Of a stretch of 64,000 bases of DNA, positions 53,505-55,351 are shown one piece after another; the stretch's first letter is position 1, and each line of letters begins with the position of its first letter. Position numbers and translations under genes: made by a program. Under the pieces are notes generated by a model that worked only from the letters and a program-made list of their open reading frames with translations, had not been told where the DNA came from and ran no database searches. Origin of the DNA: an uncultured Mycoplasma sp. (GTDB taxonomy: Bacteria > Bacillota_I > Bacilli_A > RF39 > UBA660); assembly GCA_902493595.1 (NCBI GenBank), contig CABUPU010000002.1:73942-137941 (forward strand), written 5' to 3'.

Positions 53505-54377
53505 ATGGAAAGTATAGAAAAAAATATTGATAAATATATAGATTATTTAAAATATGAAAAAAAATTAAGTAATAATACAATTATCTCTTATTATGAAAAT
53601 CTTAAGAAATTTTATAGTCATTTTGAAAAGAAAAATATTTTAAATTTAAGTACTGATGAAATTAGAGATTTTCTTTATGATGATGGTATAGTAGCTCGAA
53701 CTAGAGCACATTACTTAACTGTTTTAAATTCATTTTATAATTATATGATAAGTACTGCATATGTAAAAACTAATCCTTGTGAAACCATTAAACTTCCGAA
53801 ACTTGAAAAAAAATTACCATCTTTTTTAACAATCGAGGAAGTAGATAGGCTTTTAAATATTAATCCAGTTAAAATATATGATTATCGTAATATTGCAATG
53901 ATGGAAACGCTATATGCCACTGGTATAAGAGTAAGTGAACTATGTAATATGAAAATATCTGATATTGATTTTAATGAATGCACTATAAAAATATTTGGTA
54001 AAGGTAGCAAAGAAAGAATTGTTCCTATGAATGATAGCACTTATAATGCCTTAAAAAATTATATTGATAATTATAGGCCATTTTTACTAAAAACTAAAGT
54101 TAGTGATTATGTATTTATAAATAATTTTGGTAATGTTATAAGTAGAGTAGGTTTTTTTAAAATACTTAAAAAGTTATGTAAGGATGGTGGAATTAACAAA
54201 GATGTTTCACCGCATACATTAAGACATTCTTTTGCTACTCATTTACTTAATAATGGTGCCAATTTAAGAGTTATTCAGCATCTTTTAGGGCATAGTAATA
54301 TAACTACTACTCAGATTTATTCTCATCTTTCTAATGAATCTTTAAAAGAGGATTATAAAATGCATCCAAGAGATTAA
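53505..54377 (+). CDS. tyrosine recombinase, XerC/XerD family
   Basis: N-terminal SAM-like domain (YLKYEKKLSNNTIISY) and C-terminal catalytic RHSFATHLL..G..LRVIQHLLGH..ITTTQIYSH with Tyr. Confidence 0.8.
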   Translation: MESIEKNIDKYIDYLKYEKKLSNNTIISYYENLKKFYSHFEKKNILNLSTDEIRDFLYDDGIVARTRAHYLTVLNSFYNYMISTAYVKTNPCETIKLPKLEKKLPSFLTIEEVDRLLNINPVKIYDYRNIAMMETLYATGIRVSELCNMKISDIDFNECTIKIFGKGSKERIVPMNDSTYNALKNYIDNYRPFLLKTKVSDYVFINNFGNVISRVGFFKILKKLCKDGGINKDVSPHTLRHSFATHLLNNGANLRVIQHLLGHSNITTTQIYSHLSNESLKEDYKMHPRD

Positions 54378-54387
54378 CTACATACAA

Positions 54388-54414
54388 AAGGGAAGGGGTT
54401 ACCTTCCTTTTTTC
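54388..54414 (+). terminator. rho-independent terminator after the xer gene
   Basis: GGAAGG-ggtta-CCTTCC followed by T6. Confidence 0.6.
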
Positions 54415-54425
54415 ATATATAATGC

Positions 54426-54548
54426 TTATTTAGATCTTGAGTTAGCTCTAGCATTTGTAGAATTATTTCTTGCAGATTGTGAATTACTTCTAGCGTTGTT
54501 TCTTGCTTTAGCTTTACAAGTTCTAGCATTACTTCTTGAATTACTCAT
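54426..54548 (-). CDS. 40-aa highly basic low-complexity peptide with NAR/SNS repeats
   Basis: Perfect SD AGGAGG 6 nt upstream of the ATG. Product MSNSRSNARTCKAKARNNARSNSQSARNNSTNARANSRSK, with 12 of 40 residues R/K and no hydrophobic core. Confidence 0.45.
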   Translation of the reverse strand: MSNSRSNARTCKAKARNNARSNSQSARNNSTNARANSRSK

Positions 54549-54615: not shown

Positions 54616-55083
54616 TTATTGAAGTTTCTTTAATAATTCTGCTTTAATAGAATCTATATCAGTAAAAAATAAGTTTAAACCATTTTCTTTTAAAGATAGC
54701 ATATATTTAAAATTATTTAGAATTTCTTTACATACTGCAGATGGAACTTTAACAACTTTTCCATTAATAGTATGCCTGTTTTGTATATACTTTTCTAATG
54801 TTGGAAATGCATTTTGAATTAAGATTGCTTCCTTATTTCCGGCTATTTCTTTAATTAATATTGTTTTACATTCACCATATTTTTTAATTTTTCTATTAAC
54901 AATTTTCTGGTATTTTTGAATTTTAGAACTTAAAGGAATAAACCAAAGAATTTTACCATCTTTTATTGCTAGGTATGAAGGTCTAGAATGACCATTTTTA
55001 TGATTAATCATTACACTTTTAGCATTAATTTTATCAAAAAATTCATCTTTAATATGATATAAATATCCCGTTATTACTTTCAT
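54616..55083 (-). CDS. ToxN/AbiQ-family endoribonuclease toxin (type III TA / abortive infection)
   Basis: 155 aa. MKVITGYLYHIKDEFFDKI.. and the ..RPSYLAIKDGKILWFIPLSSK block resemble the ToxN/AbiQ pattern (Y.I...Y..YL..FD.KV ... RPY.G.......YF.PLSS). AGGAGG 9 nt upstream. Preceded by tandem repeats and a terminator, as at toxIN loci. Confidence 0.65.
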   Translation of the reverse strand: MKVITGYLYHIKDEFFDKINAKSVMINHKNGHSRPSYLAIKDGKILWFIPLSSKIQKYQKIVNRKIKKYGECKTILIKEIAGNKEAILIQNAFPTLEKYIQNRHTINGKVVKVPSAVCKEILNNFKYMLSLKENGLNLFFTDIDSIKAELLKKLQ

Positions 55084-55098
55084 AATTTCATTTCCTCC

Positions 55099-55147
55099 TT
55101 AAAAAAATAATAAAAATGGAAACTCTAATATAGATTTAGGGTTCCCA
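55099..55147 (-). terminator. rho-independent terminator between the repeat array and the toxin gene
   Basis: Minus-strand UGGGAAC-17 nt loop-GUUUCCA hairpin followed by UUUUUAUUAUUUUUUU. Confidence 0.6.
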
Positions 55148-55251
55148 ACATTTGCAACCGAGATCATTTATTGCTCGCACCACTCGGAGGCGATTAACAT
55201 TTCACGACTAGGATCATTTATTGCTCGCACCACCTAGAGGCGATTTACATT
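55138..55251 (-). ncRNA. ToxI-like antitoxin RNA: 2.3 tandem direct repeats of ~50 nt
   Basis: Units at 55138, 55188 and 55238 (acattt...). The core gatcatttattgctcgcaccac(t/c)(c/t)(g/a)gaggcgatt(a/t)acattt is 42/42 conserved apart from 4 positions. It lies between a promoter and the terminator, upstream of the toxin gene on the same strand. Confidence 0.6.
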
Positions 55252-55269
55252 TGCATTAGCATTCATTGA

Positions 55270-55298
55270 ATGCAATAGTAATATAACATTATTTTTAC
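55270..55298 (-). promoter_or_regulatory. sigma70 promoter for the ToxI-toxN transcript
   Basis: On the minus strand TTGACA (55298-55293) - 17 nt - TATATT (55275-55270). The palindrome GCATTCATTGAATGC (55249-55263) lies at the predicted transcript start. Confidence 0.5.
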
Positions 55299-55351
55299 AA
55301 TCTGTCAATTAAATTTATTAATAATTATTTACAAAAAAAATATAATTTATT

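Follow-up and report, generated by a model that had tools for sequence, protein, structure and literature searches.

The window, by which we mean the entire 64,000-nucleotide stretch of DNA analysed here, very probably carries a type III toxin-antitoxin module, chromosomal in location and belonging to the previously described CptIN family, and we infer that this module works in the same way as CptIN-Er, the system of E. rectale. Judged by its sequence, the module appears complete, well preserved and intact, and looks like an ordinary member of its family. Promoter, repeats, terminator and toxin gene are all present, as an initial annotation of the locus had proposed when calling its architecture type III, and their arrangement fits the operational definition of that type, in which a toxin homologue follows a terminator that itself follows tandem repeats (PMC5086642). 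The same annotation assigned the protein to the ToxN/AbiQ group and the locus to abortive infection; on both points our analysis leads elsewhere. The elements of the module, in order of transcription, are:

55303..55308, minus strand: -35 hexamer TTGACA, separated by a 17-nt spacer from the -10 (promoter scan)
55280..55285, minus strand: -10 hexamer TATATT with TG ahead of it, i.e. an extended -10 (promoter scan)
55259..55273, minus strand: 5' leader hairpin GCAUUC-AAU-GAAUGC, 6-bp stem and 3-nt loop (fold)
55203..55252, minus strand: CptI antitoxin unit 1, 50 nt (sequence, repeat search, covariation)
55243-55240 with 55228-55225, minus strand: helix S1 of unit 1
55237-55233 (CUAGG) with 55212-55208 (CCUAG), minus strand: helix S2 of unit 1, with the A-rich loop at 55224-55213
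55154..55202, minus strand: CptI antitoxin unit 2, 49 nt (sequence, repeat search, covariation)
55193-55190 with 55178-55175, minus strand: helix S1 of unit 2
55187-55183 (CCGAG) with 55162-55158 (CUCGG), minus strand: helix S2 of unit 2
55147..55153, minus strand: truncated start of a third unit, AAAUGUU, 7 nt (AAAUGU stands at all three unit boundaries)
55101..55146, minus strand: predicted intrinsic terminator between antitoxin and toxin, hairpin 55146-55118 and T-rich run 55117-55101
55094..55100, minus strand: Shine-Dalgarno sequence AAGGAGG, 10 nt ahead of the ATG (sequence)
54616..55083, minus strand: cptN toxin gene including stop codon, 155 aa (open reading frame, NCBIfam NF047359, PDB 4RMO)
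54391..54407, minus strand: terminator-like hairpin GGAAGG-UAACC-CCUUCC with T-run (terminator scan)

The promoter that had been read on the minus strand is indeed there: TTGACA (55308-55303), a 17-nt spacer and TATATT (55285-55280) match the consensus at 11 of 12 positions and make up the best promoter-like site of the region in the promoter scan. A promoter of the form TTGACx-17-TATAyT recurs in 62 of 65 distinct related loci, where the -10 is kept as TATATT or TATACT. The initial annotation ended the locus at 55300, and that boundary falls short, since the -35 hexamer reaches 8 nt past it; the elements placed within the locus stand. The leader hairpin (GCATTCAATGAATGC; -5.7 kcal/mol, z = -2.25) would sit at or near the transcript start and may help to stabilise the 5' end. 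What had been described at this site as a 7-bp palindrome, GCATTCATTGAATGC, has a stem of 6 bp and reads GCATTCAATGAATGC, at 55273-55259. Relatives carry a short hairpin at the equivalent site with varying stem sequence, e.g. GCACUU..., UACAUUAAAGG... and GCUACU....

Within the array, AAATGT begins at 55252, 55202 and 55153, giving periods of 50 and 49 nt, and the 2.3 tandem copies of a 50-nt repeat originally counted are made up, more exactly, of a 50-nt unit, a 49-nt unit and a further 7 nt. These last 7 nt provide unit 2 with its 3' junction motif, and presumably with a cleavage site. A repeat search recovered a 41-nt stretch at 90% identity and 50-nt spacing, close to the 42-nt core first reported as near-invariant, but over their full length the units are just 40/50 identical. 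A degenerate core motif occurs at two places in the 64-kb window, both of them in the array (0.00 expected from shuffles), and Tandem Repeats Finder reported nothing at the array. The strong hairpin and U-run expected after the repeats were found at 55146-55101, reading GGGAACCCUAA...UUAGAGUUUCC and then AUUUUUAUUAUUUUUUU, with a fold of -9.9 kcal/mol (z = -2.18); a simple terminator scan missed the 55146-55118 hairpin because of an internal mismatch. A strong hairpin and T-run follow the second unit in all distinct related loci (median -14 kcal/mol, n = 65). In relatives a TGnTAnnnT element lies beyond this terminator and may be a separate promoter for the toxin. The Shine-Dalgarno-preceded 155-aa protein is likewise as annotated (AAGGAGG at 55100-55094, reading frame at 55083-54616). 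The terminator scan returned no candidate between the cptN stop and the hairpin at 54391..54407, which is the first terminator-like site 3' of cptN and probably where a read-through transcript ends.

The toxin and its family

The protein supports the assignment to CptIN. It scores 153.3 bits over 150/150 positions against NF047359, the NCBIfam equivalog for the 'type III toxin-antitoxin system CptIN family toxin' (cutoff 90). The structure of CptN, 4RMO, is matched in the PDB at E = 1e-17 by the single sequence and at 7e-23 by a profile of 30 homologues. Identity to CptN-Er is 35%, at the lower end of the 35-44% that separate the three validated CptNs from one another (PMC4627078). A match to ToxN, AbiQ or CptN had been set beforehand as the point on which the initial annotation could fail, and the toxin fits CptN by both model and structure.

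The narrower placement in ToxIN/AbiQ (PF13958), perhaps as a long-repeat subfamily acting by abortive infection, retains hardly any probability, and family membership is refuted. Its appeal is understandable: the order of promoter, repeats, terminator and toxin is identical, and CptN and ToxN have a common fold and active-site cage (PMC4627078), so that 'ToxN-like' is a correct description of the superfamily. However, the N-terminal pattern taken as ToxN/AbiQ-like has no counterpart in the searches: Pfam returned no family for the toxin at E ≤ 1, and hence no PF13958 match in the HMM comparison that had been suggested as a check; no PADLOC model matched; and a PDB search with the 30-homologue profile at E ≤ 10 recovered 4RMO as its sole structure, and neither ToxN nor AbiQ. 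The CptIN model, in contrast, matches at 153 bits, and published identity between CptN and ToxN is below 15% (PMC4627078). Nor does repeat length mark out a toxIN subfamily, as had been entertained for the 50-nt unit, because the family is CptIN, with repeats of 40-48 nt (mean 44.8) in a survey of 33 loci (PMC3401426); the unit exceeds by 2 nt what is a descriptive range and not a criterion. As for abortive infection, the CptIN loci of E. rectale and R. torques, the two tested, gave E. coli no phage protection (PMC3401426; PMC5086642). The label is therefore unestablished for CptIN and should go unasserted here.

At the active site, the IPLSS motif (S52, S53) and R34-P35 of the window toxin correspond, in the alignment with 4RMO, to its IPLSS and NRP motifs. 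Across 30 homologues neither S52 nor R34 varies and S53 is S or T, indicating, by motif mapping, that the Ser-Ser/Thr-Arg triad of CptN-Er is conserved. Homologues of 69-97% identity have 58 invariant toxin positions, the catalytic motif among them. The residues by which CptN-Er specifies adenine are another matter: Asp81, Ser85 and Tyr104 read the scissile adenine there (PMC4627078), and all three are unmatched in the window toxin, with Tyr104 opposite an invariant His104, Asp81 opposite a gap and Ser85 opposite Glu85. Because these residues have changed, the cleavage site of the window CptN may differ and cannot be read from sequence; the three residues describe the specificity of one member, not that of the CptIN family. 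An AlphaFold2 model built on an alignment of 30 close homologues (pLDDT 51, pTM 0.36) was too poor for use.

Pseudoknot fold of the antitoxin units

The fold of the antitoxin was read from the two window copies and then tested on an essentially ungapped alignment of 104 distinct units from the window and related loci. Each unit forms an H-type pseudoknot in this model, with helix S1 pairing positions 10-13 with 25-28 (4 bp) and helix S2 pairing 16-20 with 41-45 (5 bp). These partners are paired in 97.8% of cells, a figure that falls to 27-53% if the 3' strands are offset by 1-3 columns, and none of the column shuffles attained the observed pairing or covariation score. In S1, pair 10-28 is U-A in 68 units, C-G in 36 and unpaired in 0, the other three pairs being invariant; in S2, all five pairs vary on both sides yet stay paired, bringing the covarying pairs to 6/9 across the two helices. 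RNAalifold, which is blind to pseudoknots, independently recovers S2. Covariation over 104 units thus supports the earlier suggestion that the repeats encode a pseudoknot RNA. Outside the helices, A32, A34, A35 and A39 are invariant in the 12-nt loop between the 3' strands of S1 and S2 (GCAAUAAAUGAU in the window). An invariant 4-nt UGGU junction lies between the 5' strand of S2 and the 3' strand of S1, and in the single-stranded tails columns 1-8 are at least 90% conserved and G48 is invariant.

Single-sequence minimum free energy folds of the array and of each unit gave z = -1.0, -0.85 and -0.03, and were counted neither way because nested folding cannot represent a pseudoknot. A local hairpin (columns 9-14 with 19-24), chosen by the minimum free energy fold of unit 1, was rejected as a conserved structure: it is pairable in 89% of cells, which does not exceed column shuffles (66/500), sets C13 opposite A20 in 57/104 units and shows no covariation beyond shuffles. 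It may represent a transient alternative fold that competes with the pseudoknot. Rfam searches of the locus at permissive E-values, and of three related loci at gathering thresholds, gave chance-level matches at the repeats, and no Rfam family covers the antitoxin RNA.

The same data bear on a different account of the locus, in which the repeats merely control the downstream gene, acting in cis as a leader or attenuator or serving as operator sites in the DNA, in place of a trans-acting antitoxin, or in which the module is a decayed, non-toxic remnant. A terminator does stand between repeats and gene, making attenuation part of the design, and the competing local hairpin is pairable in 89% of cells. 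Against this, changes are compensated on both strands of two helices, which implies selection on RNA structure and not on DNA sites, and each unit is a pseudoknot in its own right whose single-stranded tails are conserved, resembling what is seen in the solved CptI-CptN complex. Decay might be suspected from comparison with a Hadza gut MAG (L001, CAKOIF010000001) that is 97.3% identical over the entire locus and probably belongs to the same species as the window: its toxin gene differs at 5 codons non-synonymously and at 6 synonymously. However, 3/5 of these substitutions fall in the variable C-terminal tail, and the window toxin is full length with its invariant positions and catalytic motif in place. 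We consider this account, in any of its forms, very improbable, and continue with the reading of the locus as a CptIN module with an RNA antitoxin.

Relatives and the two non-identical copies

Relatives of the toxin are numerous, with 2596 found at E ≤ 1e-3 among 90%-identity clusters, mostly metagenomic and with the few named ones belonging to 'Bacilli bacterium' MAGs. Among contigs representing one genome per species, at least 334 loci encode a relative. The best 80 of these at least 334 loci (toxin identity 61-97%) were compared in detail, and almost all come from gut MAGs labelled uncultured Bacilli, Tenericutes or Erysipelotrichaceae. Exactly two repeat cores lie upstream of the toxin in 69/81 loci, the window included, and the cores are 50 nt apart in 69 cases and 49 nt apart in 4; loci departing from two cores are mostly on contigs that end short upstream. 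The repeats are therefore kept in orthologous loci, where their absence had been named as grounds for abandoning the proposal, and the layout of promoter, leader hairpin, two ~50-nt units, terminator and toxin is nearly universal among the 80 relatives.

The genomic setting gave no sign of a phage or defence-island context, which was considered and rejected. Housekeeping genes surround the module, encoding MutS, a polysaccharide deacetylase, a XerC/D-type recombinase, a ZIP transporter, a C26 peptidase, a PIG-L family protein and SMC. In viral sequence, relatives turned up on only 2 contigs out of 2.9 million. The locus of one of these relatives, which is 44% identical, contains three diverged units of ~50 nt whose helices keep the topology but differ in sequence. 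In being chromosomal, the window locus agrees with the 2012 survey, where every one of the 33 cptIN loci lay on a chromosome (PMC3401426). A 40-aa reading frame downstream was rejected as a third component: the window and L001, its 97%-identical twin, are the only loci to have it, and the remaining 79 lack it.

Between the window units, six of the ten differences are accounted for by three S2 pairs changed on both strands, giving CUAGG/CCUAG in one copy and CCGAG/CUCGG in the other. The 5' strand of S2 differs between copies in 56/59 distinct arrays, and the counts of inter-copy differences are equal at paired columns (27/27 for 10-28, 49/49 for 17-44 and 24/24 for 20-41). The nearest neighbour of a unit in another locus holds the like position for 45/57 copy-1 units and 49/57 copy-2 units, and pair 10-28 is mostly C-G in copy 1 and mostly U-A in copy 2. 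By these sequence comparisons, copies 1 and 2 are conserved as distinct positional types. A 2025 survey reported the repeats of toxI and cptI to be near-identical and non-identical repeats to be a trait of tenpI (PMC12283969), and because published cptI repeats are near-identical, the CptIN clade of gut Bacilli is a mild exception.

The simplest reading of this pattern is neutral, structure-preserving drift of stems in which the toxin does not read the sequence, together with conserved single-stranded tails. We have also considered that the antitoxin of the gut-Bacilli clade is a fixed pair of different pseudoknots, copy 1 and copy 2, each keeping its position from species to species, whose S1 and S2 have been made mutually non-interchangeable by compensated substitutions; we think this unlikely. 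If it were true, the inhibited complex could be an obligate asymmetric particle of 2 toxins and one each of CptI-a and CptI-b, or the helices could be kept orthogonal, preventing mispairing between neighbouring units of the precursor; either would amount to a design rule undescribed for toxI or cptI arrays.

Proposed mechanism and comparison with known systems

On the pattern of CptIN-Er, the sigma-70-type promoter would drive a short RNA consisting of the 5' hairpin and two tandem ~50-nt units, with most transcripts ending at the intrinsic terminator. Because of this terminator, mainly short antitoxin precursor would be made, and occasional read-through would yield an mRNA for CptN, a 155-aa endoribonuclease with a predicted ToxN/Kid-like fold. 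Each unit would fold into its H-type pseudoknot with the 12-nt A-rich loop lying along S1, and CptN would cleave the precursor within each of three conserved, A-rich junctions to release RNAs of 50 and 49 nt with 2',3'-cyclic phosphate ends; our guess at the cut site, from the motif common to the three junctions, is N-A/AAUGUU. The tails of each RNA would then hold two toxins, with the 3' end in the active site of one and the 5' end on the second, closing an inactive ring; the CptIN-Er complex contains 2 proteins and 2 RNAs (PMC4627078). Should the supply of antitoxin stop, the RNA would decay and free RNase would arrest growth. Processing, exact cut site, stoichiometry, toxicity and physiological trigger are thus carried over to the window module by analogy. 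CptIN-Er stabilised plasmids (PMC3401426; PMC5086642).

The locus leaves the understanding of type III systems unchanged, and its practical value lies mainly in annotation. The NCBI CptIN model can name the toxin itself; genome annotations, however, show an orphan toxin, because Rfam has no family for the antitoxin RNA and the array escapes Tandem Repeats Finder. The 104 distinct units apparently provide the first covariation-level support for the CptI pseudoknot beyond a single crystal structure, and could seed an RNA family model for a clade that is plentiful among MAGs from the human and animal gut, as the protein clusters and species-level genomes counted above attest. Positional, non-identical units combined with changed base-specifying residues also offer a convenient natural data set on the co-evolution of an RNase and its RNA inhibitor. 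Interest is modest, and attaches to the covariation of the CptI fold, the positional non-identical pair, the replacement of Tyr by His at the position that reads the base, and the absent Rfam model.

Among known type III systems, ToxIN (Pectobacterium, Bacillus thuringiensis) and AbiQ/antiQ (Lactococcus) have their operon logic in common with the window locus, and, like CptIN, employ a pseudoknot RNA antitoxin processed by its own toxin and, according to the literature, a common endoribonuclease fold. The window toxin has no detectable sequence similarity to theirs by PF13958. ToxI and antiQ units are 34-36 nt long and present in 2.8-5.5 near-identical copies, whereas the window has two units of 50 and 49 nt that are 80% identical; the complexes of ToxIN and AbiQ are heterohexameric triangles, and ToxIN-Pa and AbiQ, unlike CptIN, have been demonstrated to act by abortive infection. 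TenpIN (PMC12283969) also has few repeats, long (~50 nt) and non-identical, that contain a conserved stretch of A and are proposed to form pseudoknots, but its toxin is of another sequence family, and the CptIN model alone matched the window protein.

The closest parallel is CptIN-Er (PDB 4RMO; Rao et al. 2015, PMC4627078), whose homologous toxin is, like that of the window, 155 aa long and has the Ser-Ser/Thr-Arg motif in common with it. The family is likewise chromosomal, with two tandem repeats and an intrinsic terminator before the toxin (PMC4627078; Blower et al. 2012, PMC3401426). CptI-Er, like the window unit, folds as an H-type pseudoknot in which L1 is very short and L2 is long and A-rich, a comparison drawn from the published description. 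In the crystal structure, the A-rich L2 of CptI-Er forms an A-minor twist along S1, and the invariant loop adenines of the window clade parallel this loop (PMC4627078). There are also differences: units are 50 and 49 nt in the window compared with 45 nt in CptI-Er, and L2 is 12 nt compared with 9 nt, with an invariant 4-nt UGGU junction in the window. In both length and identity the window units lie outside the 2012 survey description of 40-48 nt and near-identical copies, and their compensated stem differences and distinct positional types are unlike cptI as described. Unit length and divergence, the UGGU junction with its competing hairpin, the changed adenine-specifying residues and the lack of an Rfam family are the points that weigh against the CptIN assignment. 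The window toxin has His104 for the Tyr104 of CptN-Er and no equivalent of Asp81. Finally, the hosts of the window clade are uncultured, low-GC gut Bacilli or 'Tenericutes', represented by MAGs, and not Lachnospiraceae.

Sequences flanking cptN

Downstream of the toxin gene cptN, the window carries a short reading frame, a terminator-like hairpin and a convergent recombinase gene:

54426-54548, minus strand: 40-aa ORF (MSNSRSNARTCKAKARNNARSNSQSARNNSTNARANSRSK) with a strong Shine-Dalgarno sequence, AGGAGG
54407-54391, minus strand: terminator-like hairpin 3' of the 40-aa ORF
53505-54377, plus strand: XerC/XerD-type tyrosine recombinase, 290 aa, with Phage_integrase and SAM_1 domains

Because only 67 nt separate the cptN stop codon from the 40-aa ORF and no terminator intervenes, the two are probably carried on one transcript. 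R, N, S, K and A make up 85% of the residues of the predicted peptide, which had no match in Pfam. Across the 81 loci compared, the ORF was found only in the window and in L001, the relative that is 97% identical to it, and was not found 3' of cptN in the remaining 79; the two copies differ by two synonymous and two non-synonymous substitutions.

The recombinase gene is convergent with the cptN transcription unit, and the size and domains of its product fit a housekeeping Xer type rather than a mobile-element integrase. Base composition gave no island boundary. In the MAG that carries L009, a glmS ribozyme (RF00234, 82 bits) occupies 672-812 on the minus strand of the L009 sequence, with ~2.2 kb between it and cptIN; it is incidental, with no relation to the cptIN finding.

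Possible joint variation at two antitoxin columns

One pair of positions stood out in A2, the alignment of 104 distinct antitoxin units:

Columns 15 (pseudoknot loop L1) and 38 (loop L2); window unit 1, 55238 and 55215

On visual inspection, column 15 (U/C) and column 38 (G/U) tend to vary jointly, U occurring with G and C with U. This joint change, a non-Watson-Crick pattern, could reflect a tertiary contact, or merely common ancestry.

Promoter-like sequences 5' of the toxin gene in relatives

An extended -10-like motif, TGnTAnnnT, occurs 17-26 nt 5' of the toxin start codon in 57 of the 74 distinct relatives (L002-L081), between the terminator and the start codon and immediately 3' of the former (e.g. 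L005, L010 and L016). In some relatives it is accompanied by a -35 element (TTGACA/TTGCAA) at 17-nt spacing, and a full -35/-10 pair precedes the toxin gene in L009, L057 and ~25 further relatives. Neither the window nor L001 has the motif. A single relative carries a longer sequence in this interval:

L029, 590-800: insert of ~230 nt that separates the antitoxin terminator from the toxin gene

Within it lie a promoter of consensus sequence, TTGACA-17-TATAAT, and a segment that is richer in GC and of structured appearance (GUACGGCAGCGACUGUCGG...GGCCGUGAGGCUUAUC); the insert had no match in Rfam at gathering thresholds.

Judged from these motifs, the toxin in relatives with TGnTAnnnT would have its own promoter, which, if true, would not follow the model in which type III loci work by a 'single promoter plus read-through'.
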